NCBI GenBank assembly: GCA_043803105.1
Contig: JAZDKJ010000008.1
Span: 106,787-170,786 of the forward strand
Length of the DNA: 64,000 nucleotides
Source: Candidatus Woesearchaeota archaeon
GTDB lineage: Archaea; Nanobdellota; Nanobdellia; Woesearchaeales; JAZDKJ01
Reading direction: 5' to 3'
The notes under the pieces were generated by a model. It ran no database searches. It saw only the letters and a list, made by a program, of their open reading frames with translations, and was not told where the DNA came from. Positions 6,710-48,342 of the stretch are shown here, piece by piece (positions within the stretch are counted from its first letter, which is position 1; every line of letters begins with the position of its first letter). Both the position numbers and the translations under genes were made by a program.

Positions 6710-6915
6710 GCCCCGTTGGTGTAGCCCGGCGCAATGGAACTTCAGTTAGAGGTTCCATGCGGGAACAATCATTCGGCCCTCTCGAGGCCGAGACTCGGGT
6801 TCAAACAGCCTTTTTCCATAGGAAAAAGCCTGGGGAAAGGCTTTTTTGCCTTCGGCAAAAAAGTGTGTTTCAAAGGTTTCAAATGTGGGAGGGTTAGAAA
6901 ATCCCGAACGGGGCA
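6710..6915 (+). tRNA. tRNA-Glu(CTC) with D-loop intron (~6730-6765) and T-loop 59/60 intron (6806-6901)
   Basis: GCCCCGT/ACGGGGC acceptor stem; CGGCC-CT CTC GA-GGCCG anticodon arm; cloverleaf restored by removing two inserts with BHB-like junctions. Confidence 0.92.
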
Positions 6916-6968: not shown

Positions 6969-6993
6969 GGGAAACTAGTTTTTATGTCAGCAA

Positions 6994-7045
6994 GCCGCGG
7001 TCGCATACTCACAGAACAAGTTCTGTGGTCGCGACCTTGTGTGGC
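6994..7045 (+). repeat. Hairpin beginning with an exact 14-nt copy of the tRNA-Ser 5' end
   Basis: GCCGCGGTCGCATA at 6994-7007 equals 7088-7101; folds GCCGC/GTGGC, GGTCGC/GCGACC, CACAGAAC/GTTCTGTG. Confidence 0.8.
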
Positions 7046-7087
7046 AATCTTCAAGCTAAATAGCTTGATGGCAATAAGATCAATTTT

Positions 7088-7229
7088 GCCGCGGTCGCAT
7101 AATCCGGTACGCGCTGGATTCCTCCGGAATCCGCTGGTGTCCCGTGCGCGGAACATTGCGGCAGTCTCGAACCAATGCAAGAGAACTGCTGTCCGTAAGG
7201 GCATCTCGGTTCAAATCCGAGCCGCGGCG
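7088..7229 (+). tRNA. tRNA-Ser(CGA) with D-loop intron (7109-7154) and 12-nt anticodon intron (7172-7183)
   Basis: GCCGCGG/CCGCGGC stem, G73, long variable arm TGTCCGTAAGGGCA, anticodon CGA 7168-7170; BHB TCCG/CGGA at the D-loop. Confidence 0.9.
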
Positions 7230-7237
7230 TTTACACA

Positions 7238-7546
7238 ATGTATATCCCAAAGCGTTACGGCCAGAGCAAGATTGACAAGTGCCCTTTCTGCGGAAAACAG
7301 GCCATCGCACTTAACAAGCAGAAGGTTCCAGTCTGTGAAGCGCACAAATGGAACAATCTGGATGAGATGAAATGCAGCTGCGGAAGCTACCTGGAGATGA
7401 AACATGGGAAATTTGGGGTATTCTTCGTTTGCTTCAAGTGTGGAAACAAGAACCTAAAGCAGGTGCTTGAGATAAATGAGCCCAAAGATAAGAGCAGCAG
7501 TCAGAATGAAATAACTGTAAGGTCTGATGACCCAAGGTACTTCTAA
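7238..7546 (+). CDS. Small Zn-ribbon protein
   Basis: CPFC, CEAH, CSCG, CFKC; GKFGVFFVC resembles topoisomerase Zn ribbon. Confidence 0.7.
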   Translation: MYIPKRYGQSKIDKCPFCGKQAIALNKQKVPVCEAHKWNNLDEMKCSCGSYLEMKHGKFGVFFVCFKCGNKNLKQVLEINEPKDKSSSQNEITVRSDDPRYF

Positions 7547-10938: not shown

Positions 10939-12426
10939 CTAGCAATTCATCGTCCTCTGAGCAAATTTTTCAAAATGCAGACCATATATCGCTAATTCTA
11001 TTGCGACAGGAACTGCCTTTATCTTTGTGAAGAAGGTCCTTGTCAACAGCCTCCAGTATAAGAACCTGGAATTGGAAAGAATGCCAATCTTCCAAAAGCT
11101 CTTGAAAAGCGCATGAAGATCTCTTTTGGTGAATCTTGAACGCACAGTTGGTTTGTAATGCTTAATAAAAGTATTGATTCTTTGATAATAATTCTTGGGC
11201 GTGTAAATTGTGGAAATGATTTCCTTGTAACCCTGGATAAGTTTTGCTTCTTTCATTTTGGGCACAAAGTTAATGGTACCATCTGTGTTTTCTCCTGTTG
11301 CTGCATGCAGCAATCTTCCCTCAGCCTTGAGCCTGTGCCAAAGCCTTGTCTGTGGAAGCACATTCAAAAGCCCGACCATGGCTGTCACTACACCAATCTC
11401 TTGAATGAACTTTATCTGGGTTTTGAAAATATTTGAAGGATCGTTATCAAATCCGACAATAAAACCTGCTGCCACCTGCAAGCCATTCTGGTGTATTATC
11501 TTCACGGATTCAGACAGATTTCTCAAGTTGTTCAGTTTGCCGCACTCCCTCAAGCTTTTTGCGCTTGGAGTCTCAATGCCAAGAAACACTGTACCAAAAT
11601 TTGCCCTTGACATGAGCTGCATAAGCTCGAGGTCATCTGCAAGGTTAATACTGGCCTCAGCGGAAAGGGTAAAAGGATATTTACGGCTCTTCTGCCAGTC
11701 TATCAATAGGGGAAGCAATCTCTTCACCTTCTCCTTGTTACCAATGAAATTGTCATCAACAATGAAAACACGACCTCTCCAGCCATAATCAAAAATCTGC
11801 TGGAACTCCCTTATGACCTGGTCTGGGTCTTTTGTCCGGGGGCTTCTGCCATTCATCACGACAATGTCACAGAATTCGCAATCAAAAGGGCAGCCCCTAG
11901 AATATTGTATCGGCATGCTTGCATAGTCTTTCAGGCTTATCAAAGACCACATAGGCACAGGAGTTTTTCTTATATCAGGCCGTACCTTTGAGGAGTATAC
12001 CTTTTTTGGAGTTCCTTTTTCAAGGTCATTCAAGAATCTTGGCAGGGTGACTTCTGCCTCGTTCAAAACAAAATGGTCCACATCCTTAAACCGCATATAG
12101 GTTGTTGTAAAGCATGGGCCGCCAGCAACGATAGTCTTTCCAAGGGCTTTGCATCTCTTGATTATTTCCTTGACACTTTCAGTCTGAACAATCATTGCGC
12201 TAATCAATACCATGTCTGGCCAACTAAGCTGTTGGTCTGTCAGTTCGGATACATTCATATCCAGAAGCTTTTTCTCCCATCTTTTAGGAAGCATAGACGC
12301 CACTGTCAATAAACCTAGTGGCGGAGAGGAAGCCTTTTTCTTGATAAAACCCAGAGCATGACCAAAACTCCAAAAGGTGTCAGGACACTTTGGATAGACC
12401 AGAAGAACTTTCACCGCTTTTTTCAT
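10939..12426 (-). CDS. B12-binding radical SAM protein (DUF4070 type)
   Basis: PPLGLLTVA cobalamin-binding N-terminus, SRGCPFDCEFC, DDNFIG, GFIVGFDND. Confidence 0.92.
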   Translation of the reverse strand: MKKAVKVLLVYPKCPDTFWSFGHALGFIKKKASSPPLGLLTVASMLPKRWEKKLLDMNVSELTDQQLSWPDMVLISAMIVQTESVKEIIKRCKALGKTIVAGGPCFTTTYMRFKDVDHFVLNEAEVTLPRFLNDLEKGTPKKVYSSKVRPDIRKTPVPMWSLISLKDYASMPIQYSRGCPFDCEFCDIVVMNGRSPRTKDPDQVIREFQQIFDYGWRGRVFIVDDNFIGNKEKVKRLLPLLIDWQKSRKYPFTLSAEASINLADDLELMQLMSRANFGTVFLGIETPSAKSLRECGKLNNLRNLSESVKIIHQNGLQVAAGFIVGFDNDPSNIFKTQIKFIQEIGVVTAMVGLLNVLPQTRLWHRLKAEGRLLHAATGENTDGTINFVPKMKEAKLIQGYKEIISTIYTPKNYYQRINTFIKHYKPTVRSRFTKRDLHALFKSFWKIGILSNSRFLYWRLLTRTFFTKIKAVPVAIELAIYGLHFEKFAQRTMNC

Positions 12427-25371: not shown

Positions 25372-25815
25372 ATGAAGCAAAAAAACTACTATATCATAAT
25401 GGCTTCGATAGCGCTAATTGCAGTCATAGTTTCAATCACAGCAGAAATAGAGCACGTTACACAGCAAAGTTCTCTGCAAGGCTTCTGCAACGCTTTTGGG
25501 AAGAGCAGCTGCCAGACAGTCCAAGACAGTGTCTACGGAAAAATCTTTGGGATGGACACAGCGATTTATGGAATAGTTGGCTTTAGTTTGCTCTTGATTG
25601 TGTCAGCATTGTTCTATTTTACAAAGAAGAAGCTTTTCCAAAACCTAACGATTATAGGCACTTTGATCGGAGGATTAATGGCACTTCGCTTCCTGTATCT
25701 GCAGGCATTTGTGCTGCACCTTTTCTGCATCTTCTGCGTTGTTGTTGACACGCTCGGAGTCATACTGCTAGGAATAGGAATATTCCTAGCAGCAAAGACT
25801 ATGAAAAAACGCTGA
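25372..25815 (+). CDS. Vitamin K epoxide reductase (VKOR) family protein
   Basis: C..(6)..C..V..S.YGKIFG loop and CIFC redox motif in a membrane protein. Confidence 0.9.
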   Translation: MKQKNYYIIMASIALIAVIVSITAEIEHVTQQSSLQGFCNAFGKSSCQTVQDSVYGKIFGMDTAIYGIVGFSLLLIVSALFYFTKKKLFQNLTIIGTLIGGLMALRFLYLQAFVLHLFCIFCVVVDTLGVILLGIGIFLAAKTMKKR

Positions 25816-25871
25816 TGCAATCTCTCAAACAGAAACAAATATAAATCAAATACTAACTTGTTCTCGGTAAT

Positions 25872-26127
25872 GCCCCGTTGGTGTAGTCCGGTGACGGTCT
25901 TGTCCGTCAACACCGAAGGCGGCTCCTAGTGACTTCGTCACCGGAGCCCCCTGTGTTATTGGCGGCACGTCAGGACAATCAATCATCCGGCACTTTCGAT
26001 GCCGGGACTCGGGTTCAAAGAGCTTTTTTCCATGGGAAAAAACCTCGGAAAAGGCTTTTTGGCTTCGCCAAAAAGTTTGTTTCAAGGAGTTCAATTGTGG
26101 AAAAACTAGAAAATCCCGAACGGGGCA
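25872..26127 (+). tRNA. tRNA-Glu(TTC) with D-loop intron (~25892-25978) and T-loop intron (26020-26113)
   Basis: Exons near-identical to tRNA-Glu(CTC); CGGCA-CT TTC GA-TGCCG; BHB helix GTCC/GGAC. Confidence 0.92.
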
Positions 26128-26226
26128 TTTTTTCTCCATTGGTGTCTACAAATAAATTATCGTTTGAATCAAAAAATGACAAGAAGGTCCGCACATGGTT
26201 TTCAATGGTTCACTACAAAATTCAAA

Positions 26227-27207
26227 CTATTTTTTCAAGAACTCATGAGACTTAATTCCCTTAAATTTGGACAGGTAGCCACGAAAGTCACCAGGTATTT
26301 TTGTTGAGTCATCATAAGTGTACATTTTGACCTTTAACGCTTCAAAAGAGCATTCTGCTATTCGTGCACCATCAAGATTCAAAACGTCTCTTATATGTGA
26401 ATCGGTTAAATTGAGCCTATGGATTCTGGCGTCACCCAAGTCGAGGTGTTTGGTTCTTAGCCCTTTCATATTCAATTCTACACATGTAATATCCGAAAAA
26501 TCTGCATTTTCCTTTATTACCATGTTCTGCATGTAGGCAGTCCCACCTATTTTCATGAGCTGGCAAAAGGCACTGCCAATTCTGGCGCCAGTCATGTATG
26601 CGTTACCTTTGATACGAATACCGTATAGGCAAAGTTCATTTTCAACCTTGGCTTTCGAGGCAATAAGATCTCCTTTTAATTTGCAATCTGACAAGTCAAG
26701 CCCATAGGGTGAATAGGACGGTAATTCATAATCATCAAGTAGTTTGTGCCTTGGATTTACAATATTAATCTTGGGAAGTTTCGGGTTGTTCCTCCTGAAG
26801 CGCTGCAACTTGGGAACATAAGTATCTATTTTCACATGCATTTGATCAAAATTAATCACACTGAAATCATATTCTTCTGTCCCAATACTTCTCTCATATT
26901 TTAGGTCATACCTCTGCTTGCCTTCAACCAGAAGGGCTTCTGATGAGATAAGCTTACCATCCAGGTCGAAGGAATCCCAAACTGTAATGTGATGCCCAGC
27001 CTTAACCTGGTCCCCCTGGATAATATGACCGCTTGTTTCTAGAAGCGAATCATCGAAAATGCGTGCCTCAATAGACTCTATAGCTTCTGGACGCAGGTTT
27101 TGCGGGCTGCCAATTATGTCAAAGAGTCTTTTATCCCTATGCGAAAAGGAGCGCCGCTTAAATATTGATTTGAAGCCTTCCTTTGACAATTTGTTGTACA
27201 TAGCCAA
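26227..27207 (-). CDS. Hypothetical protein with C-terminal pentapeptide-like repeats
   Basis: Recurrent LxLxxAxI/ADFSDI ~10-aa periodic units. Confidence 0.65.
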   Translation of the reverse strand: MAMYNKLSKEGFKSIFKRRSFSHRDKRLFDIIGSPQNLRPEAIESIEARIFDDSLLETSGHIIQGDQVKAGHHITVWDSFDLDGKLISSEALLVEGKQRYDLKYERSIGTEEYDFSVINFDQMHVKIDTYVPKLQRFRRNNPKLPKINIVNPRHKLLDDYELPSYSPYGLDLSDCKLKGDLIASKAKVENELCLYGIRIKGNAYMTGARIGSAFCQLMKIGGTAYMQNMVIKENADFSDITCVELNMKGLRTKHLDLGDARIHRLNLTDSHIRDVLNLDGARIAECSFEALKVKMYTYDDSTKIPGDFRGYLSKFKGIKSHEFLKK

Positions 27208-27258
27208 AGTGAATACATAAAGAACATAAAAAGGTTTCCGGTATGAAGCAAACTACTC

Positions 27259-27307
27259 TAATGCCCTAAATCTTCACAAAAAGGTCTTATGACCGAACGG
27301 GGCACTT
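27259..27307 (+). repeat. 49-bp cassette-boundary repeat, copy 1
   Basis: TAATGCCCTAAATCTTCACAAAAAGGTCTTATGACCGAACGGGGCACTT; 45/49 identical to 30137-30185. Confidence 0.92.
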
Positions 27308-27870
27308 CACATCTCTTCCAGAATGTTCTTTTTGTGAAATGCAACCTTATTTGCCTTGAGGATCTCTTCAAAACTCAGTGAATTCTGAATAGGAATTTTT
27401 GCTGCTCCACTGCTGATACGCTCACCACCTATTTCCTTTAGGACTCCGTTAGATCCCCTCCCTGCGAGGATGTAGTTGAACCGGATCTTTTCGGAGTGTG
27501 TCAGGCCGTTGAGGCTCCACGAGAACAGGGTGTAGGATTTGAACCCCAGATTCTCGCAAAAGTGCTTTCCGCTCAGCACACTGATCCCTTCGAGGAACAA
27601 TCCTGTTCTTGCGAAGAAACCTGGTGAAAAAAGCTCTTTCAGCAATATCTGTTTTACGTCTAGATTTTGATGGAGAATTTTTTTCAGACCTATTTTGATA
27701 TTTTGGGCCTTGTCGAGCCTCTCGCGGAGCGACCCTTCAAGGAATATGACCAACACATCGATGTCCCCCGGAGACAGCTTCCCCTTTACCGATGACCCAT
27801 ACAGGACAATGTCAAATACGCCTGTGGGACCTATTTCAGACTCTAAGTGCTTTCTTAAGATGTTCAGCAT
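27307..27870 (-). CDS. Nucleotidyltransferase (MNT) domain protein
   Basis: LYGSSVKG....GDIDVLV. Confidence 0.88.
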   Translation of the reverse strand: MLNILRKHLESEIGPTGVFDIVLYGSSVKGKLSPGDIDVLVIFLEGSLRERLDKAQNIKIGLKKILHQNLDVKQILLKELFSPGFFARTGLFLEGISVLSGKHFCENLGFKSYTLFSWSLNGLTHSEKIRFNYILAGRGSNGVLKEIGGERISSGAAKIPIQNSLSFEEILKANKVAFHKKNILEEM

Positions 27871-28174
27871 CTTCCTTCAGTAGTTCTGCAGATTCCTTGT
27901 CCATCCTTTTTGTATAGCTTTCTTGATAGTATGGGAAATCGCGGTCAGCAATCCTGTACATCTCAGGATATTTTTCTTCCAGGACTCTGAAACGGTTGGA
28001 GTGCGAGGAGGGGGCTTCTCCCTCTTTTCTCAGAAGGAAGAGGTCGCAGAGTGCCGCGATAGCTTTGAAAAAGAGTGTTGTCGCTGAGTTGTATTTTTGC
28101 TTCTTGAAGGCATCAAGCCCGAATTCGTAATATTCCCTGAAATTCTCAATGAGAATTTTCTCCTTTTCCTCCAT
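27836..28174 (-). CDS. HEPN-domain protein (HEPN-MNT module)
   Basis: Helical, YNSATTLFFKA...PSSHSNRF; overlaps the MNT gene. Confidence 0.7.
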   Translation of the reverse strand: MEEKEKILIENFREYYEFGLDAFKKQKYNSATTLFFKAIAALCDLFLLRKEGEAPSSHSNRFRVLEEKYPEMYRIADRDFPYYQESYTKRMDKESAELLKEDAEHLKKALRV

Positions 28175-28298
28175 TTTGTATAATACAACAGTAGACAACT
28201 ATTTAAGCCTTTTGGTTGTACTATACAATTTGTTGTATTATACAATTAATAAGTGCAAGAATCGATTTTATGTTGTATCATATAACATCTGTCCACAT

Positions 28299-28345
28299 CA
28301 ATGTGTGAATTTTCACAAAAAGACGTAATACCTAACTGGGCAATT
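28299..28345 (+). repeat. Degenerate cassette-boundary repeat
   Basis: CAATGTGTGAATTTTCACAAAAAGACGTAATACCTAACTGGGCAATT keeps AATG, TTCACAAAAAG and ACCnAACnGGGCA. Confidence 0.7.
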
Positions 28346-28527
28346 TTTTTGTCTCTTAAAAGTAGTTATAAAATGAAAGATTTTTATATTAGAGCGTCTT
28401 ATGAGATAACTAGAACCACTAGTGTGGAAATAAGGCATATAAACTGGAAAAAGAGTTCAGGTAGCTTTTGACAAAAATCCATTTATATATAAATGTTGTA
28501 AATAATAGGCGATAGGAAGGACAAAGA

Positions 28528-29928
28528 ATGAACACACAATATATTAATCAACATACAAACAGTAACCAAAAAATTGATAACAAAGAGGAATTTGAAATTT
28601 TGCTGATTGATCCAGGAATTCAACTCAAAACGAGATCTAATGTAAAATATGTTAATAGGGGACTACTAAGTATAGCTACTTTTTTGAGAAGCAAGGGATT
28701 TAGAACAAATTATTTTTCACTTGATTATTATATTAACGCGGGAATGAATGAGGAGCAGGTTTTTTCTGAAATAGAAAAAATCATTAAGGAAAAAGATGTA
28801 AAAATATCGGCTATAAGCAATCTCTTTATAGCTGAAACTGACAATGTTCTAAGAATCGCCAAATTTATTAAAGAAAGATTTCCAGAGAATATCACTGTAA
28901 TCGGCGGATATAATCCTACTATTACAAATCAGGAATTAATAAAAAGAGAGGAAATAGATTTTATTATAAGGGGCGAGGGAGAATGGGCGTTGCTTGACCT
29001 AGTATCTGCAATAAAGAATGGAGTGTCAACCAAAGACATTGCCGGATTAGTAACAAAGGAGCATATTGGGGCCGAAAGAAAACACGGCGACCTTAGAGAG
29101 CTTCCACCTATTGATTACTCAATTTTACCGAGAGCATACTTACTAAGCGATAATCCACCGCGCGTAAATCTTGAAATAAGTCGCGGATGTTATCATAACT
29201 GTACCTTTTGCAGCGTGAGTCAATTTTGGCACGAGACGATACGCTCTCACAACCCGGACAAGTTAATTCATGAATTTGAGGAACTCAAAAAAATAGGTTA
29301 TAAGGGGTCAATAAGTCTTGAAGAGTCTATGGTAAATCTTAAATCAGAGAAGATAAAAGAGTTTCTCAGTAATGCGAAGAGATTCAAAGACGAATTTGAA
29401 TTTGATTTTATTGCTTCGAGATATGACTTTGTTGATGACGAAAGCATAAGTCTTTTGGATGAGATTGGTTTTCAAAACTTGATGCTGGGTCTTGAATCAG
29501 CCTCTAAGAAAGTTTTAGACAAAATAAACAAACATATAGACTTAGAAGCGTTCATAGAGACTTGCAAGATCGTTAAACAACATAAAATAAGATTGAATGT
29601 CTATATGATAGTGGGACTCCCAGGTGAAACAAAAGAAACGAACAAAGAAACCTACGAGTTTCTGACTAAGATGATGAATGAAGAACTAATAGACACTGTT
29701 TTCCCATGCTATTTTCAACCTTACCATGGCACCAGAGCAAGGGAAGATATAAAAGAGTTTGGAGGAAAAATCTTGGCTGATGAAAAAGACTATTTCAAGT
29801 GGTTAATGCGTGATGAACCATTGGTAGAGTATGAAGGATTAAATAAGAAAGAGTTAAAGGAAATGATGAACAAGATGTTGTATCTTAACAAAGAAGTGAA
29901 AAATCCAGTTATTGATAAATTAATGTAG
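28528..29928 (+). CDS. B12-binding radical SAM protein
   Basis: GLLSIA, IIRGEGE, SRGCYHNCTFC, LGLES, IVGLPGET; visibly AT-rich. Confidence 0.9.
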   Translation: MNTQYINQHTNSNQKIDNKEEFEILLIDPGIQLKTRSNVKYVNRGLLSIATFLRSKGFRTNYFSLDYYINAGMNEEQVFSEIEKIIKEKDVKISAISNLFIAETDNVLRIAKFIKERFPENITVIGGYNPTITNQELIKREEIDFIIRGEGEWALLDLVSAIKNGVSTKDIAGLVTKEHIGAERKHGDLRELPPIDYSILPRAYLLSDNPPRVNLEISRGCYHNCTFCSVSQFWHETIRSHNPDKLIHEFEELKKIGYKGSISLEESMVNLKSEKIKEFLSNAKRFKDEFEFDFIASRYDFVDDESISLLDEIGFQNLMLGLESASKKVLDKINKHIDLEAFIETCKIVKQHKIRLNVYMIVGLPGETKETNKETYEFLTKMMNEELIDTVFPCYFQPYHGTRAREDIKEFGGKILADEKDYFKWLMRDEPLVEYEGLNKKELKEMMNKMLYLNKEVKNPVIDKLM

Positions 29929-30136
29929 GAAAACAATCTAATGCTCAAAATTCAAAAACTACAATCGAGTTATGGAAATCCTCTACGGGATTGATATTGA
30001 AATAGGAACTATCAAAGCGATTGTTAACCCCAATGGGAGCGGTAATTCCACAATTCTTAGGAGTGGTGCATGAAAGAAAGAGTCCTTGTAGAACCTTAAA
30101 AAGATTTCAATTCCCAACTTGTTTTTATGGTTACAA

Positions 30137-30185
30137 TAATGCCCCAATTATTCACAAAAAGGTATTATGACCGAACGGGGCACTT
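30137..30185 (+). repeat. 49-bp cassette-boundary repeat, copy 2
   Basis: TAATGCCCCAATTATTCACAAAAAGGTATTATGACCGAACGGGGCACTT. Confidence 0.92.
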
Positions 30186-30241
30186 ATTTTTCTCGAAACG
30201 ATTAGCAATGTTTATATAGAAATAAATGTTATGGTGTCATA

Positions 30242-30451
30242 ATGACCACGAAGTATACAATAATAATTGAGAAGGATGAGGATGGCTGGCTAGTGTCTGA
30301 GGTAGTGGGTTTGCCGGGTTGCCATACTCAGGCTAAAACCATTGAGGAGCTTTTAAAGAGAACAAAGGAAGCAATAAAGGCATATCTGGAAGATGAAGAC
30401 ACACCTGAGATTTCTGGAGAGTTTGTAGGAGTGCAGCAAATAGAGGTGTAG
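30242..30451 (+). CDS. hicB: HicB family antitoxin
   Basis: IEKDEDGW...LPGCHTQAKT.EEL....EAI. Confidence 0.92.
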   Translation: MTTKYTIIIEKDEDGWLVSEVVGLPGCHTQAKTIEELLKRTKEAIKAYLEDEDTPEISGEFVGVQQIEV

Positions 30452-30454
30452 TTC

Positions 30455-30688
30455 GTGAACAAACTGCCTAAGCTGACAGGCAAAGAATTGGGCAAAATTA
30501 TTGAACGGTTTGGTTTTACCTACAGCCACACGACTGGAAGCCATATGGTTTACAAGCATCTTGATGGAAGGAAAACAACAATACCCCATCATTCAGGCGA
30601 AGAGATTGGCCCTGGGCTTTTGAACAAGATTATAAAGAGAGATTTGCAGATAACAAGAGAGAAATTTATTTCTAAGGTGGATGAATAA
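30455..30688 (+). CDS. hicA: HicA family mRNA interferase toxin
   Basis: GF......GSHMVYKH.DGRKTTIPHH...IGPGLL. Confidence 0.92.
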   Translation: MNKLPKLTGKELGKIIERFGFTYSHTTGSHMVYKHLDGRKTTIPHHSGEEIGPGLLNKIIKRDLQITREKFISKVDE

Positions 30689-30705
30689 AAATCCCGAACG
30701 GGGCA
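30688..30705 (+). repeat. Exact copy of the tRNA-Glu 3' end (attR-like)
   Basis: AAAATCCCGAACGGGGCA identical to 26110-26127 and 6898-6915. Confidence 0.9.
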
Positions 30706-30838
30706 CTTTCTTTTCTCGTAATATTTGAACCATAATTTTGACGTGCATTAACCTTTTGCTCAAGTGATATTCTATAATAGTTATCTTGCAGAAGCGAAAT
30801 TGTTATCAATAAGAAGTAACTACCTACACCACGCTAAA

Positions 30839-32392
30839 ATGGCAAAGGATATCGCAAACAACCTTGGCGCTGCGTTGACACAGCTGGGCATCGAAGATAA
30901 GTTTCTTTCCAATGGCGAGCTAACCAGCTTTCCGCTCGTTGACAGGGGGAGAATTGCGAACGGCATCATAGAAGAGAAACTAGGATCTGGAAAATGGACT
31001 ACAGTAGTCCACCTCTTATTTGGCAGCAACGCACATGCCCATGCACTCTATGAAGGAGACTACGAGCAGCTGAAAAAAGACATTTTGCAGTCTGCGCTAA
31101 GCAGCAGCAGAGAATATTATGACATGGACAAGGTGGCCAAGGACCTGGCAGACAGCAAAGAGTTTGACCTGTTGTTTAAGATTGCCTGTAGTATCCCAAT
31201 CAATTATGATGAATTCAACAAACTTACTTACCACTTTCCAAAAGGATTTTTTGATGGCCAAAACTTGCAAATGTTGCACAATGTGGCAGGGAAAAAAGCA
31301 TTAGAAGAAAATAAGCCTGACTCTGCTGCTTATCACTTCACAGAAAGCGGCGACAAAGAGAATCTGAAGGCTGCTTTTGAAGCGATGCTGACGCATTCAG
31401 CTCAAAGACATACGGACAGTCTGGAAAAGATTGCACTTTTTTTCCCAAAAGAACAAGCAGAAATGCTAAAGAGAATTATCCTCTCGACTTGCTCAGAAAA
31501 AAGTGGTACGGTAAGTGCCCTCAAACTCTATTGGAAGTATGTGGGGACAAATTTAACCCTTCCTGAACATGATGTAAACAAGCTTTATTCCAATGCTGCT
31601 TCTGAAGCAGTTAGATTTGACGTGACCAGACTGCCCTTTTTGAAGGATGCTAGACTATGCTTGCTGTGGGCAAAAAAGCATGCCAAATCAGAACCACAGG
31701 CATCATACAGAATATTCAATGCTCTGGGTTATAAAGGCAAAGAAGTTCAAACTGCTGTTCTTTCAGGCCTTGAAATTGAAAGGTACCAGCATGAAGACCA
31801 GGTTCTCACACCGCAAGACATTCAAAAGGAACATTTAGAATCAGCGTATAAACTTGCTTCATTCAAAGTTAAGGTTGTGATTGCAAAACATCAAAAGAAT
31901 AACAGAAGACTGCAAAAGTTGAGCAAGCAGGCAGAACAAAAAGAGGACTTGAGGGAAGCCTATTGGTTGTGGACTGCTGGCAATGGCAACTTTGAAAGCA
32001 AATACCTTACCAACATTAGGAAACGGCTCATCGAAAAGGAGATAAAAAAAGGTTCTTGTTGGATGTCCTTTATAGAAAAGAATGACAGGCCTGGCAAGCT
32101 GCAGGCTTATGATGCTCTCATGCAGGAACGCCAACAGCAGAGATATCGGTTTGTTGAAGTTGCTTACGAACTGGCAAGAAGTTTGTCAGACCAAGAAAGA
32201 ATGCAAAGAGCACGCGAGCAAATGGTAAATTTGAACGCTCAGCGAGCCCTGGAAGCATTTGTTAAGGATAAAAAGGAGCCAGACAAAACTGGAATTGAAT
32301 ATCTTGTAAATGTCATGGCACAACGGTTTAAGGTGGAAGCGCCAACCCTTGCAAGAATAGTAGAAAAATATGCTTCAGGCTTGTCAATTTGA
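30839..32392 (+). CDS. Hypothetical alpha-helical repeat protein
   Basis: >500-aa ORF; probable start MAKDIA. Confidence 0.65.
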   Translation: MAKDIANNLGAALTQLGIEDKFLSNGELTSFPLVDRGRIANGIIEEKLGSGKWTTVVHLLFGSNAHAHALYEGDYEQLKKDILQSALSSSREYYDMDKVAKDLADSKEFDLLFKIACSIPINYDEFNKLTYHFPKGFFDGQNLQMLHNVAGKKALEENKPDSAAYHFTESGDKENLKAAFEAMLTHSAQRHTDSLEKIALFFPKEQAEMLKRIILSTCSEKSGTVSALKLYWKYVGTNLTLPEHDVNKLYSNAASEAVRFDVTRLPFLKDARLCLLWAKKHAKSEPQASYRIFNALGYKGKEVQTAVLSGLEIERYQHEDQVLTPQDIQKEHLESAYKLASFKVKVVIAKHQKNNRRLQKLSKQAEQKEDLREAYWLWTAGNGNFESKYLTNIRKRLIEKEIKKGSCWMSFIEKNDRPGKLQAYDALMQERQQQRYRFVEVAYELARSLSDQERMQRAREQMVNLNAQRALEAFVKDKKEPDKTGIEYLVNVMAQRFKVEAPTLARIVEKYASGLSI

Positions 32393-32401
32393 ATTCTTGA
32401 C

Positions 32402-34525
32402 TTAGGCGGTGGGGTTTTCCTGCAGCACCTTAATTACATCCTGCTCCTTCGAGATAGGGTAATATTGCAATGGATTGATAGACCTTGGGAAGAGGGTGCC
32501 TACACCGAGCGGCTTGATGTCTTTATACATCTCGGTAAATCGCTCTTGTATTACTTTGGGCTCAAGGCTTGTTTTTTCAGTCCAATAATCGATTCTTTCC
32601 AACAGAAAATAATTCCTGGAAGCAACAAAGAAAAACTCCGCAACAATCTCCCCCTTGATCACCTTCTCGAGACTTGTGCTAAGGGTCTGCCATTTTTCTT
32701 GACTGTAGCTTTTCCCAAGTGCACTCTGCCAGAGGTTCCTGATATATTTCTTCGCATGGAATGCACCCAGGCCAATTGACTCGCCTGCCACATGGAGGAA
32801 TCCATCCCGCTGAGTGCAGGCGAACCTGCAACCTTCATTGGAGCTTGGATCCTGAGCATAGACATCAGGCTGGTTTAGTGCCTGGTAGAAAGCAGACAAA
32901 GCCTCGCGTTTGGTCACATGATGGTGGTCCAATTTTTTAATCAGGACTACCCTGGCATCACCTTTGGAGAGCACCCTGACCAGCGAACCTTTGCATTTAT
33001 CAGCAGCCTTAACAAGATCCTCTGTCTGGCAGTCAAGCTCGCGTGCTATCTGTTGCGGGGCGAAAGGGGAATAACCCTTAATCATTTCAAAAATAAAGTC
33101 AACAGACTGCTTGGAAAAAGTTTTTGGCGAGGTTGTTTGAGCCCAATTGCCAATAAGCGGCTCAATGCCAGATGCGTTAGCGGGAATACCATCTCGGAGA
33201 AATCTGGTGATGATATCTTCATAGAAATAGTCTCCGTTCATTGCATACTGGCTCAGGGATTGATATATACCTATAAGGGCATCCATCTCCATGTCCTTTG
33301 GCATCAGCATGGCAATCTGACTCTTGCCATCAGTGTATTTGGCAGAGTAGACTGTAATACGCTCGTCAAAGCATTCCTTCATGACATTAATCACTGAAGT
33401 CAAATCACCTGGGCCTGTGCCTTTGCCAAGTTTCTCACAAAGGATTTTGATTGGAAGGGCCTTTTTGACCTGAAGCTCATAGTCTATTTTCTCCAAACCC
33501 CCAGTTATTTTATCGTTTGGGTCAAGGGAGCATAAGGCTCGGATCATTGTCTCTGCAAATTTTTCGGAAACTGGATAGGTTGTGTTGAACCTGGCGATTG
33601 CTGCTTGCAGGCTTGTAGGATACTCATACTCAAACTCTTGAATGGGCGGAGCATTTTTCACAATCTCAGACAATTTAGGAGCAGGCTTAGGAACCTCAAC
33701 AGACTTTTGTGGCGCTTCCAATGCATTCAACCTGTCTGACAAATCTGGAACCGGGCCATGCTCTGGTTCTGAGTCTTTGGCCAAGGGAGTATCCTGCGTC
33801 TTTTCCAGAAAAGGTTTGTTTATCTTAGCGATTCTGTTTTGCATCTCACGCAGATATATACCTGCAAGATCTTCAATTTTCATATCTTGGGGAATGAGCA
33901 TAGCCACTCGCCTGGGTCCTGTAGAGCCCGGCGCAGCATACACAGTTATCCGTTTGTCTTCGCAATGCTTCATAATATTAATCAAAGAAGCAGGATCGCT
34001 TTCGCCTTTACTGTCGGCAATGTACCTGGATAGCAATGTGATGGGCAAAGGCCTCTTAGCCTGCAGTTCATAATCTATTTTTTCAAGACCTTCTGCTATG
34101 CAGCCATCAAGGTCAAGGCGGCAGACTGCACGAATCATGGTCTCGGCAAATCTTTCATCAACACCGTATAGGATATTGAAACGGTCAATTGCATCTTGGA
34201 CACCTACAGGGTAAATATATGCCAATTCCTCCGTAGGCTGCAAATCGATGTTCAAATGGTTGGCCACTTCTCGGATTGTTTCACGCTCGGAATGCGCAGG
34301 ATGTTCTTTGTCCCCTCCCAAAGGAGGAGGATTCAAAATCTGTTCTAGAAGAGATTTCTTTTCAATGACCCTGCGGAGGAGCATTATTCTGCGCCGGAGA
34401 TATGATTTCTCATCAGGTGATTCGGCTGAGGCAGAGAGCTTGTCAAGCCTTCTTGGTATGAAGGTGAGATAGTGCTGTGTCTCCTTAAAGACTGAATCTA
34501 TCTGTTCTTTGAATTCGGGTCTCAT
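32402..34525 (-). CDS. Hypothetical protein with duplicated ~125-aa domain
   Basis: FAETMIRA.C.LD....I..GLEKIDYELQ occurs twice. Confidence 0.75.
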   Translation of the reverse strand: MRPEFKEQIDSVFKETQHYLTFIPRRLDKLSASAESPDEKSYLRRRIMLLRRVIEKKSLLEQILNPPPLGGDKEHPAHSERETIREVANHLNIDLQPTEELAYIYPVGVQDAIDRFNILYGVDERFAETMIRAVCRLDLDGCIAEGLEKIDYELQAKRPLPITLLSRYIADSKGESDPASLINIMKHCEDKRITVYAAPGSTGPRRVAMLIPQDMKIEDLAGIYLREMQNRIAKINKPFLEKTQDTPLAKDSEPEHGPVPDLSDRLNALEAPQKSVEVPKPAPKLSEIVKNAPPIQEFEYEYPTSLQAAIARFNTTYPVSEKFAETMIRALCSLDPNDKITGGLEKIDYELQVKKALPIKILCEKLGKGTGPGDLTSVINVMKECFDERITVYSAKYTDGKSQIAMLMPKDMEMDALIGIYQSLSQYAMNGDYFYEDIITRFLRDGIPANASGIEPLIGNWAQTTSPKTFSKQSVDFIFEMIKGYSPFAPQQIARELDCQTEDLVKAADKCKGSLVRVLSKGDARVVLIKKLDHHHVTKREALSAFYQALNQPDVYAQDPSSNEGCRFACTQRDGFLHVAGESIGLGAFHAKKYIRNLWQSALGKSYSQEKWQTLSTSLEKVIKGEIVAEFFFVASRNYFLLERIDYWTEKTSLEPKVIQERFTEMYKDIKPLGVGTLFPRSINPLQYYPISKEQDVIKVLQENPTA

Positions 34526-34657
34526 AATCCAGCCCCCAAGAAGACTTGAGGATTTTGCACCTCTCAACACATGTTGTGCTGGGCTGATTTAAAAAGTTTT
34601 CGAGGATTAATCATAGAGCTTGCTTTCTCCTGCTTGTCATTGGCAGTATTCCGGGAA

Positions 34658-45992: not shown

Positions 45993-48051
45993 TTCAAACT
46001 CACACACAAATGAGAAACAAAGTCCACATGTGAAACATGCGGACTGGCTGGCTTAGATTTAACAATCAATGATGCCGTGCACTGTAAACAATTGGAAATC
46101 AAAGCTATTAGGTGGATGACTTGGTTCTGAACGCTGATGAAGGATGTGACAAGCAGCATTATGCTCCGGCGAACCGCATGTAGGTTTTGAACCGGAGATT
46201 TCCGAATCTGACTTCAGCATAGAATCCGTAAGGATGGGGAACGCAGGGAATTGAAACATCTTAGTACCTGCAGGAAAAGAAATCAATCGAGATGCCGTTA
46301 TTATCAGCGAGAGAAAGCGGCGTAAGGCAAACTGAATCCCGCCAGGTAACTGGAGGGAGATGTGGTGTTATAAGACCACTGGTATTCCAAGCTGGGGAAC
46401 TCGAAGTTCCTTGGAACAGGACGCTGTAGAGGGTGACAGCCCCGTACAGGCAACTCAGCTGGATTAAGGTGGTATCTTGAGTACTGTTTACTTGATACTA
46501 AACAGGAATTTGGGAGTCATCAACTTCCAACCTTAAATACGTTCAGAGTCCGATAGCGCACAAGTACCGTGAGGGAAAGTTGAAAAGAACCCTTGACAGG
46601 GAGTTAAAAGATCCTGAAACCTAATAGCGATAGTGGGGTACTGCTCTTAGGAGTTGTACCGTGCGTTTTGAATAACGTACCAGGGAGTTTATTTATGTGG
46701 CGAGGATAAGTCTAACGACGGATCCAAAGCGAAAGCAACAAGCTCGCAAGCAATCAGGAGCGCCGTATGAAAGTGCGGGGAGTCACATGAATATGACCCG
46801 AAGCCAGATGAACTAGCCGTGGGTAAGGTGAAGCGCGGGTAAAACTGCGTGGAGGCCTGCAGAGGTTCTACGAGCAAGTGTTCTTCTAACCTGTGGCTAG
46901 GGGTGAAAAGCCAATCGAATCTGGTGATAGCTGGTTCCTGCCGAAGTTGGCCGCAGTCAAGCCTCAGATGAGGGTGCGGTATTTGTAGAGGTACGGATTA
47001 GGGATTTAGGGCTCGAAAGGGCTCGGTCTCTCGTCCAACTCCAAATGATACCGCCCCGTAGACGCTGAGAGACGGGGGTCCGGGGTAAGCTTGGATCCCG
47101 AAAGGGGAACAACCCAGACTGCAGTTAAGGCCCCAAAATACTGACTAAGTGTGAAAGGGTGAAGAGTGTCCTAAGCCTAAGACAGCGAGGAGGTTGGCTC
47201 AGAAGCAGCCACCCTTTAAAAAGTGCGTAACAGCTTACTCGTCAAGGTTTAGGGCCTTGAAGATGGACGGGACTAAGTCAGTTGCCGATACTGCAGACAT
47301 TCTTCGGAATTGTGATAGGCAGGCGTTCTGTTTGGGAAGAATCATTTCCACAAGGAGATGAGGACCGAACAGAAATGAAAATCCTGGTAAAAGTAGGAAC
47401 AGAGTAGAGTAAGAACCTCTACCGCCGAAAGGGCAAGGGTTCCTTGACAATGCAGATCAGTCAAGGGTTAGTTGATCCTAACTAATTTCCTAATAGGAAA
47501 CCATGAGGAAAGGGAAACCGGTTAATATTCCGGTACTGTCCGAGTATGCGCGGCAACGCAAGCCATGTTTCCGACGCTTCCGGTTAGGCCAACACAGCTC
47601 GTCTGCTGTGCTAACCAACATATATCAAGGGAGTATTGTCATGATGAGAACTTGATAAAAGGAGGGAATGGTCTCTCGTATGAGGGATTTGGTCGAGACC
47701 AGGAGCCCGTGAAAAGGGAATGTGGAAAAATCTTGGATAATCATACCCAGAACCAGCACAGGTGCCCCTAGGTAAGTAGCCTAAGGCGTGAAGGTGTAAT
47801 CTAACTGAGGGAACTCGGCAAATTAGCCCCGTGCCTTCGGTATAAGGGGTCCCTGCCACGGTGTCTGTATAGATGCCATGACAGGGCGCAGTAACAAGGT
47901 AGGTCCGACTGTTTAACAAAAACGTAACTGTCTGCCAGCCCGCAAGGGTGAGTATAGGCGGTGACGTCTGCCCAGTGCCAGTACTTGAAATTTGGGTTCA
48001 ACCAATATAAGAGCTGGTAAACGGCGGGAGTAACTATAACTCTCTTAAGGT

Positions 48052-48342
48052 AAGCACAAAGTTGCCTTAACAAAATTTGGCTAAATGCTGGAAAGTCTTG
48101 TAGAAGCAGAATAGGATAACATTGTGGCAACATAATGTCGAACCCTGAAAATTTCTGTGGAAAGACAATCAGCAGGAAAGATTTCTCAAATCGAGAAAAA
48201 TCCTCAGAGACTATACGCCAAACGCTTCCGATGGGAGCGAAGATATAGTCCGACCCTACAAGCGATTGTAGGAGACGCAGCAGAAATGTGCGTCCGCCAT
48301 TTAAAATGGTCAGTACCTGAAAACAGGGAAGCAACAGACGTG
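48052..48342 (+). ncRNA. Group I (IB-like) intron in 23S at ~E. coli 1931, 291 nt, no ORF
   Basis: Splits CTTAAGGT|AGCGAAAT; P1 TTAAGGT/GCCTTAA with U-G pair; P AAATGCTGGAA, Q AATCAGCAGG, R TCAGAGACTA, S AAGATATAGTC; terminal G. Confidence 0.93.

Follow-up and report, generated by a model that had tools for sequence, protein, structure and literature searches.

Gene cassettes separated by copies of one 46-bp site follow a tRNA-Glu gene in a Woesearchaeota genome

We analysed a stretch of 64,000 nucleotides, here called the window, from the genome of a Candidatus Woesearchaeota archaeon (assembly GCA_043803105.1, contig JAZDKJ010000008.1, positions 106,787 to 170,786). In this window, a tRNA-Glu(TTC) gene is followed by four cassettes of one or two genes each, between which lie copies of a single site of about 46 bp; a plain copy of the tRNA 3' end comes after the last cassette. 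All elements that an earlier reading of the letters (the original prediction) had listed between positions 25868 and 30705 were found, and in the same order. The array is best read as an integron-like variant of the accretion of elements at tRNA genes that is known from cis-mobilizable elements (CIMEs) and tycheposon islands. We consider it fairly probable that the cassettes, which lack an integrase gene, integrated site-specifically at the attachment site (attB) in tRNA-Glu with the help of a classical tyrosine integrase supplied in trans. From the interpretation given in the original prediction, the exchange of cassettes bounded by repeats was supported, but the acceptor-stem pairing of the repeats, the unrecognised type of site and the likeness to integrons in integrase and site were not.

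The genome of origin, G000, comprises 1.56 Mb on 13 contigs with a G+C content of about 44%. The window is part of contig C8 and carries an archaeal rRNA operon. For comparison, we used a genome of the same genus (G001; 84% complete, 240 contigs), two genomes from two other genera of the same order (G033 and G034), and a metagenome contig of 9,998 bp (L020).

Results

The tRNA-Glu gene and the repeats behind it

The array starts at the tRNA-Glu(TTC) gene on the plus strand (25872–26127); the sequence TAATGCCCCG begins at 25868. The gene carries two inserts (introns), one in the D-loop (approximately 25892–25979) and one in the T-loop (approximately 26020–26112), whose boundaries are accurate to a few bases only. 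The paralogous tRNA-Glu(CTC) gene, at approximately 6711–6915 of the window, contains inserts at the same two places (D-loop, ~6731–6766; T-loop, ~6807–6900). Because both genes hold two inserts, ARAGORN reported no tRNA gene in the unmodified 64 kb. When the inserts of the TTC gene were cut out by coordinates over a grid of boundaries, the program called tRNA-Glu(ttc) in 1485 of 3456 combinations, tRNA-Asp in 84, tRNA-Val in 4 and nothing in the rest. Once both inserts are removed, ARAGORN thus agrees with the predicted identity of the gene. Its last 12–18 nt (26110/26116–26127) represent the overlap that resembles an attB site.

Three copies of the site and one plain copy of the tRNA end follow, all on the plus strand. 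Site A (27259–27304; profile E = 1.8e-15) consists of a left box ATGCCC and the conserved core TTCACAAAAAGGTCTTATGACC, followed by 12 nt that copy the 3' end of the tRNA. Site C (30137–30182; E = 1.4e-16) is close to the consensus. A and C are 89% identical over 54 nt, and each matches the tRNA end at 12 of 12 positions. Site B (28299–28342; E = 2.3e-8) is degenerate: it has kept the core (TTCACAAAAAG), and its tRNA-like end has decayed to CCTAACTGGGCA. Site D (30688–30705), detected by a repeat search, is an 18/18 direct repeat of 26110–26127, just as predicted; it lacks the core, resembles an attR site and is followed by a T-rich flank similar to a tRNA trailer. The T-rich right flank of C (30183–30198) resembles that of D, the two being alike over 28 nt at 89%. 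The plan common to the sites in G000 is ATGCCCC, about 21 nt, ATGACC, GAAC and GGGGCA. The array is bounded by direct repeats of the tRNA 3' end, and the tRNA gene itself is intact, as in islands at tRNA genes.

The repeats are confined to this locus. With up to one mismatch, CCGAACGGGGCA occurs at six places in the 1.56-Mb genome, five of which are the two tRNA-Glu genes and the sites A, C and D; the sixth has one mismatch and lies on another contig. A genome-wide search of G000 with a site profile built from nine copies retrieved only A, C and B. The next match (E = 0.25; 7519–7544 of the window) lies inside an open reading frame (ORF) of 102 amino acids and was dropped. Outside G000, copies were found in G001 and L020.

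Contents of the cassettes

Cassette 1 (26128–27258) contains an ORF for 326 amino acids on the minus strand (26227–27207). The predicted pentapeptide-like nature of its product has some basis in a likeness to PF13576, but the score of 17 bits is below the cut-off of 27, and no NCBIfam model matched. Cassette 2 (27305–28298) carries an MNT nucleotidyltransferase gene (27307–27870, minus strand; Pfam NTP_transf_2, E = 1.3e-5) and an overlapping HEPN-like gene (27836–28174/28198, minus strand). The MNT half of the predicted HEPN-MNT module is backed by Pfam, but the HEPN-like product (112–120 amino acids) has no match in Pfam or NCBIfam. A language-model match to HEPN/PaREP1 clusters (score 0.94) and the operon context are the sole basis of its label. 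The pair is likely a type VII toxin–antitoxin system. Sequence searches of the PDB with the HEPN-like and the 326-residue proteins gave nothing usable.

Cassette 3 (28343–30136) harbours a gene for a B12-binding radical SAM protein (28528–29928, plus strand; B12-binding domain, E = 4e-14; Radical_SAM, E = 5e-24). As predicted, the cassette is AT-rich, with a GC content of 0.30–0.38 compared with about 0.44 for the genome. In cassette 4 (30183–30687), Pfam recognised both members of the expected hicBA module on the plus strand, hicB (30242–30451; HicB_lk_antitox, E = 1e-7) and hicA (30455–30688; HicA_toxin, E = 2.5e-16). The genes of cassettes 1 and 2 are thus on the minus strand and those of cassettes 3 and 4 on the plus strand. 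Among the ORFs of the window examined with Pfam, no recombinase gene was found within 25868–30705, and Pfam and NCBIfam revealed no remnants of integrase or transfer genes in the cassettes. All four units are flanked by site copies and lack a recombinase gene, as CIMEs do.

Cassettes differ between two species of the genus

In G001, we found six copies of the site on four contigs. Contig C149 starts inside the T-loop insert of the tRNA and shows, in tRNA orientation, the tRNA 3' end, an ORF for 705 amino acids, a site A', the same MNT/HEPN-like gene pair as in G000, a site B' and DNA unmatched in G000. The 705-residue ORF, which belongs to no family, occupies the place of the 326-residue ORF of G000. 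The DNA after B' is not the radical SAM gene; the radical SAM gene of G001 lies on contig C1 between two further site copies, with genes for an AAA_14/DUF4143 ATPase, a DEAD helicase and an IS66 transposase as neighbours. We sought contigs overlapping the G001 contig ends beside B' and at C1:153 and found none.

A sensitive pairwise comparison placed the limits of the homology at the sites. Positions 27261–28254 of the window match C149 with 77% nucleotide identity, the block beginning two bases into site A, and positions 28346–28399 and 28588–29950 match C1 (75% nucleotide identity for the radical SAM cassette), beginning just right of site B. Outside these blocks, the two genomes match at the sites only. 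Homology that begins and ends at the sites is what exchangeable, repeat-bounded cassettes, as originally proposed, predict. Judged from the two assemblies, gene content differs cassette by cassette between these species; an identical gene order in relatives, which would have spoken for a static locus, was not observed. In G033 and G034, the tRNA-Glu(TTC) gene is intronless, and no repeat of the tRNA end occurs in the approximately 9 kb downstream (two of two loci in other genera). Therefore, the site can be empty, and its occupancy varies among the relatives.

We also scanned 401 genomes of the order with the 22-nt core. With zero or one mismatch, only G000 (two matches) and G001 (four matches) were retrieved. 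Altogether, 31 genomes matched; the other 29 had one match each (two in G382), all with 2–3 mismatches, and a reversed-pattern control yielded similar scattered single matches. One of these genomes, G207 (a single match with 3 mismatches), is flagged as unpublished and supports none of our claims.

One G001 copy deserves separate mention. On the minus strand of contig C206 (locus L019, approximately 5666–5547), the site is split between left box and core by an insertion of about 118 nt with 13-bp terminal inverted repeats and an internal, perfect 9-bp hairpin. Its structure would suit either a miniature mobile element or a structured RNA.

Tyrosine recombinase genes adjoin copies of the site

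A metagenome scan with the core pattern matched two contigs. One of them (L021) matched at the 22-mer alone, with unrelated surroundings (E = 3e-4 over 22 profile positions), and we took it as a chance match. In the other, L020, the site is the only DNA in common with G000 (54 nt at 89%, which is the match to site C, and 48 nt at 90%). In site orientation, L020 is led by a divergently oriented gene for a tyrosine recombinase of 404 amino acids (PF00589, E = 1.8e-13). About 45 nt past it lies ATAATGCCCGAACGGGGCAT, that is, two "tRNA ends" without a core, forming an inverted repeat ATGCCC/GGGCAT around GAACG. Next come a second, short site and an MNT/HEPN-like pair, after which a full 46-bp site and a family-9 glycosyltransferase gene follow. 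The HEPN-like gene of L020, together with the site, recurs on contig C206 of G001 (301 nt, 78.7% identity), where its neighbour is a gene for a trypsin-like peptidase. The L020 enzyme is neither an IntI (TIGR02249, 23.8 bits; cut-off 265) nor a XerA protein (76.7 bits; cut-off 220).

A second recombinase gene was found on contig C190 of G001. The sixth site copy, of which the right half is present, is followed 310 nt on and on the same strand by an ORF for 136 amino acids and a gene for a tyrosine recombinase of 289 amino acids (E = 1e-22), which is unrelated to the L020 enzyme beyond the superfamily. Of the 151 genomes searched, 16 others have homologs with 31–38% identity, and none of the 18 loci carrying them outside G001 has the site or a tRNA-Glu-like end. 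G000 encodes three tyrosine recombinases on other contigs, none of them close to the L020 or the C190 enzyme: one is a XerA (249.6 bits; cut-off 220), and two lie directly behind intron-bearing tRNA genes. The lack of a recombinase gene in the array and the tyrosine recombinase genes adjoining site copies in two other genomes are in line with the originally predicted recombinase acting in trans. Viral contigs gave no match to the 22-nt core pattern. A 15-base pattern hit 33 viral loci, at which the profile matched the pattern part only (best score, 15 bits); these were taken as chance.

The integrase family of L020 comprises 111 protein clusters, some of which are source-labelled Woesearchaeota. 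An alignment-based scan of the genome collection yielded 51 genomic loci, and a single-sequence scan with the L020 protein yielded none. Twelve of the 51 loci have a tRNA gene 137–399 nt upstream on the same strand, which is the classical tRNA-then-integrase layout, and at one of the loci (L047) a 21-nt tRNA-Lys end is repeated 4.1 kb downstream. At E ≤ 1, the G000-type site was absent from all 51 loci. In the relatives nearest to the L020 enzyme (41–47% identity), a three-box layout, ATGCCCC ... ATGNCY ... GGGGCAT, immediately precedes a conserved promoter-like box and the integrase gene. It reads ATGCCCCC-N17-ATGTCT-N7-GGGGGCAT at locus L028 and ATGCCGGCGAGGGGCAAT at L026; the counterpart in L020 is ATGCCCCGTTCGGGCAT. 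Locus L029 is collinear with L028 except for a further 626 bp, which contain two small ORFs and no integrase gene and are flanked by 30-bp duplicates of the site. L029 thus offers a clear case of a small unit without an integrase gene inserted at such a site.

Further sequences on the same contigs and beside the other integrase genes are recorded here as side observations. L020 carries a gene for a C5 DNA methylase (PF00145, E = 2e-125) and, on the minus strand at approximately 5630–5515, a tRNA-His-like gene (anticodon loop CTGTGGA) that ARAGORN missed and that has a T-loop insert at the same position as the G000 tRNAs. In G000, an integrase gene lies directly behind an insert-bearing tRNA gene at C7:30533–32375 (L022) and at C10:28480–30073 (L023). 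Between tRNA and integrase gene on C7, several short pieces match the tRNA 5' start (GCGCC) and 3' end (GGCGT), and the 5' part of the C10 tRNA is duplicated. From their arrangement, these pieces may be further cases of the "arm plus inverted arm" att layout, situated at tRNA genes other than tRNA-Glu.

The repeat resembles an ordinary double-stranded att site

The original prediction described the repeats as collapsed tRNAs whose ends pair like an acceptor stem around a core with the imperfect dyad TTCACAA-7 nt-TTATGAC. The dyad is present in A, but it is weak and not kept in the other copies. The ends of A and C can form a stem of 5–6 bp. The z-scores of eight folds, however, were ordinary (−1.57 to +0.85), and pairing across the nine copies amounted to 77.4%, compared with 75.5% in shuffles, 177 of 500 of which were equally high. 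In addition, the best-conserved columns belong to the non-tRNA core (TTCAC, AA, G, T, AT, AC), and GGGGCA holds no invariant column. We therefore abandoned the collapsed-tRNA view; a hairpin or attC-like reading was dropped for the same reason, both pairing conservation and fold energies being at shuffle level.

The repeat, which had been called a site of unrecognised type, rather reads as an ordinary double-stranded att site with an element-side arm, a 12-bp overlap and a T-rich trailer, since the same layout is found at the att sites of the recombinase family encoded beside it. What looks like the tRNA 5' end in the repeats we would read as an inverted copy of the GGGGCAT arm; the likeness arises because the acceptor stem is self-complementary.

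Other classes of site were compared with the array. A regular-expression search for attC R boxes (RYYYAAC...GTTRRRY) on both strands of 25800–30800 retrieved none, with 1.2 ± 1.6 expected from shuffles. Like the L020 enzyme, the other recombinases stayed below the TIGR02249 cut-off of 265 bits: G001:C190 scored 63.4, the XerA-type protein of G000 216.7, and the C7 and C10 enzymes 37.4 and 34.4. The genes lie on both strands while all sites point in the plus direction, which departs from integron cassettes, most of which share one orientation and carry their site at the 3' end. By integrase and attC, the integron reading thus fails. A dif-type site has 28 bp with inverted arms and a spacer of 6–8 bp, and is acted on by XerA. 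A dif-like shape was seen only in the coreless L020 site, ATGCCC-GAACG-GGGCAT; the 46-bp sites differ from it, and the XerA gene of G000 lies on another contig and has no link to the site. We also rejected a split-integrase scar of the SSV (Sulfolobus spindle-shaped virus) type, in which an att site within the integrase gene leaves pieces of that ORF on its two sides: the L020 integrase ORF starts about 45 nt from the site without overlap, no PF00589 domain was found among the window ORFs searched, and the frames across the site are closed or only 12 amino acids long.

Discussion

The most economical account of the array is serial site-specific integration at the attB site in tRNA-Glu. Each cassette would carry one double-stranded att site of about 46–60 bp. 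Its element-side arm would consist of a box ATGCCC(C), about 20 nt and a box ATGACC within the core TTCACAAAAAGGTAT.ATGACC. This would be followed by a 12-bp overlap equal to the tRNA-Glu 3' end (CCGAACGGGGCA, holding the inverted box GGGGCA) and by the T-rich trailer. A cassette, presumably in circular form, would recombine through the overlap either with the tRNA 3' end, regenerating attB, or with a site already present in the array, and older cassettes would be pushed away from the tRNA gene by newer ones. The core would serve in arm-type or accessory binding. The model predicts that an internal junction joins three parts, namely the left cassette's element-side arm, the overlap and the right cassette's trailer-side arm, and looks like a complete site; at the far end, it predicts a plain tRNA-end copy with the original trailer behind it. 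A, B and C on the one hand and D on the other, as well as the likeness of the flanks of C and D, match these predictions. The enzyme would most likely belong to the classical family of the L020 integrase, neither IntI nor XerA, and be delivered in trans by a visiting element.

Several observations weigh against serial integration by such an enzyme. Two unrelated recombinases adjoin site copies, and either may be the cognate enzyme. G000 encodes no cognate integrase: its best match to the L020 integrase is 23% identical and sits at another tRNA, and a C190-type recombinase was not found in it at E = 1e-20. In G001, we found nothing related to the L020 integrase. Conservation is higher in the core than in the region where crossover is presumed to occur, a difference that the model covers by assumption only, and D has no core. 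Sites have decayed, B here and five of the six G001 copies, which have lost GGGGCA, and a large part of the array may no longer be mobile. Copies of the site come from three sources only (G000, G001 and L020), and the three-box likeness to L028 and L026 relies on boxes of 6–8 nt. Finally, the right edge of the island is not fixed, and the island may extend past D.

The strongest competitor is ordinary decay, in which several full-size elements (plasmids or proviruses that encoded their own integrases) integrated in tandem at tRNA-Glu and deletions then reduced each of them to one or two genes with the att ends preserved, the cassettes never having been mobile as such. We regard it as a serious though unlikely explanation. 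Both integration in tandem and the loss of integrase genes are known from archaeal elements (PMC8371274, excerpt) and from CIMEs in bacteria (PMC5704250, excerpt), units with an integrase do occur in such arrays (L020 and G001:C190), and both the many decayed sites and the lack of a cognate integrase in G000 would follow naturally. Decay accounts poorly, however, for at least five cargo units of 0.5–2.2 kb (the 326-residue ORF, the 705-residue ORF, two types of MNT/HEPN-like pair and the radical SAM gene) that all end in the same near-consensus arm. The second type of MNT/HEPN-like unit occurs with the site in two genomes next to different neighbours, and at L029 an integrase-less unit of 626 bp sits cleanly between site duplicates. 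Independent deletions converging on the same minimal units would be less parsimonious. The shared arm on these unrelated units, the one unit in two contexts and the L029 insertion argue that cassette-sized units themselves move.

Alternatively, the repeat could be punctuation at the level of RNA or transcription, such as a bidirectional terminator, an insulator or a small tRNA-like RNA, that was spread in some other way. Conservation is highest in the core, also in copies whose tRNA-like end has decayed. The core contains A5, which reads T5 on the opposite strand, T5 also follows the end in a T-rich right flank, and the sites lie 2–60 nt from gene ends; archaeal terminators are T-rich. We nevertheless consider punctuation improbable. 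A conserved fold has no support, no Rfam family reached its gathering score, and the site is confined to one locus of G000 rather than following genes in general. Punctuation would also leave unexplained the identity with the tRNA end over 12–18 nt, the 18/18 flanking repeat, the breaks in homology and the adjacent recombinase genes.

A true integron array without integrase, that is, a cluster of attC sites lacking integron-integrases (CALIN) with the repeats as attC, is very improbable: the array of short cassettes resembles one in layout, archaeal integrons and CALINs exist (PMC9668308, excerpt), and two of the four cassettes here are toxin–antitoxin pairs with no integrase in the array, but the repeats lack R-box pairs, a significant fold and conserved pairing, are conserved in sequence and not in structure, and accompany genes in both orientations, with no protein reaching TIGR02249. 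One old segmental duplication of the tRNA end without any mobility, for which the single locus in G000 might speak, can be practically dismissed, since the units between the repeats are mutually unrelated, in G001 and L020 this site accompanies different cargo, and the two species of the genus do not have the same gene content at the locus.

Serial integration at tRNA-Glu has parallels in several known systems. CIMEs at tRNA genes of Firmicutes, related to ICESt1 and ICESt3, retain att sites, have lost their integration genes, occur stacked and use the integrase of a neighbouring or incoming element (PMC5704250, excerpt). They share with the present array the integrase-less, att-bearing units stacked at a tRNA end. 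CIMEs are, however, decayed integrative and conjugative or integrative and mobilizable elements (ICEs or IMEs) of many kilobases, whereas the units in G000 measure 0.5–1.8 kb, hold one or two genes and share one element-side arm; moreover, these units reside in an archaeon, without any involvement of conjugation genes. In the tycheposon islands of Prochlorococcus, successive integrations at a tRNA gene push older elements inward, partial tRNA copies separate the elements, and remnants and extra partial tRNAs are scattered within (bioRxiv 10.1101/2020.12.28.424599, excerpt). The tRNA anchor, the inward displacement and the separators made of tRNA copies are alike. In contrast to the cassettes, tycheposons, as far as the excerpt describes them, carry their own tyrosine recombinase and replication genes, and their separators are partial tRNAs instead of a composite site with a non-tRNA core.

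Archaeal elements that integrate into tRNA genes leave direct repeats of the tRNA end, and tandem integration and loss of the integrase have been reported for them; they are of plasmid or virus size, in contrast to the cassette-sized units here (PMC8371274, excerpt). The excerpt of that article mentions neither DPANN archaea (no occurrence of "DPANN") nor cassette-sized units. The ssrA-specific islands of Dehalococcoides are similar in their small cargo modules, repeated recombination sites and single chromosomal target, which is the tmRNA gene (PMC3146451, excerpt). Like integrons and CALINs, the array would work through a tyrosine recombinase and a primary site, and it has in common with them gene-sized cassettes with one site each, toxin–antitoxin cargo and the existence of integrase-less arrays (PMC9668308, excerpt), and the L029 insertion beside an integrase-proximal site is a further integron-like feature. 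Integrons differ in using IntI, folded attC sites and an attI anchor, whereas the G000 array has sequence-conserved sites that overlap a tRNA end, genes in both orientations and a tRNA anchor. Small cargo modules bounded by repeated dif-like sites also occur as pdif/Xer modules on Acinetobacter plasmids, where the sites measure 28 bp and not 46 bp as in G000. In a limited literature search, we found no account of such cassette-sized arrays from DPANN archaea.

A bolder version of serial integration would see here a second, independently evolved gene-capture platform. In it, a classical integrase family would move promoter-bearing cassettes of 0.5–2 kb between tRNA-Glu ends and integrase-proximal sites, among unrelated hosts, by way of a double-stranded three-box site of about 46 bp (ATGCCCC, ~20 nt, ATGNCY, 4–7 nt, GGGGCAT). 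The family would be common in DPANN archaea and present also in bacterial metagenome-assembled genomes, and the platform would function as an integron built on a tRNA-end att site and not on folded attC DNA. We put this forward tentatively and as doubtful.

Few routes of gene exchange are recognised in small-genome archaea of the DPANN type, and a stack of one-gene cassettes with a shared site, anchored at a tRNA, would be a simple one. If the account is true, the array could explain the swapping of toxin–antitoxin, defence and metabolic genes in these archaea. The L020-type integrase and the 46-bp site are a concrete pair that bears on integron-like capture by an ordinary integrase acting on double-stranded sites. 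If the cassettes are merely decayed elements, the locus is an ordinary genomic island.

Additional observations

Two large ORFs lie to the right of the array, at 30764–32392 (542 amino acids) and 32402–34570 (722 amino acids) of the window. Neither belongs to a Pfam family, and the 542-residue ORF has no homolog among the 20 relatives searched.

The inserts of the tRNA genes have relatives elsewhere. The T-loop insert partly recurs at four other places in G000 (C6:403710, C6:187267, C6:371782 and C7:30614) with 81–94% identity, one of which falls within another insert-bearing tRNA gene, and 40 nt of the D-loop insert match positions 10979–11018 of contig C14 in G001 with 98% identity. To judge by these copies, the inserts look like a family of spreading tRNA introns. 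Directly after tRNA-Glu(CTC), at approximately 6986–7232 of the window, we noticed a further probable insert-bearing tRNA gene that no tool called; it starts with GCAAGCCGCGG, ends with CCGCGGCGT and has the T-loop TTCAAATCC. Elsewhere in the window, the large-subunit rRNA gene contains a group I intron at 48022–48272 (Rfam RF00028, 80 bits).

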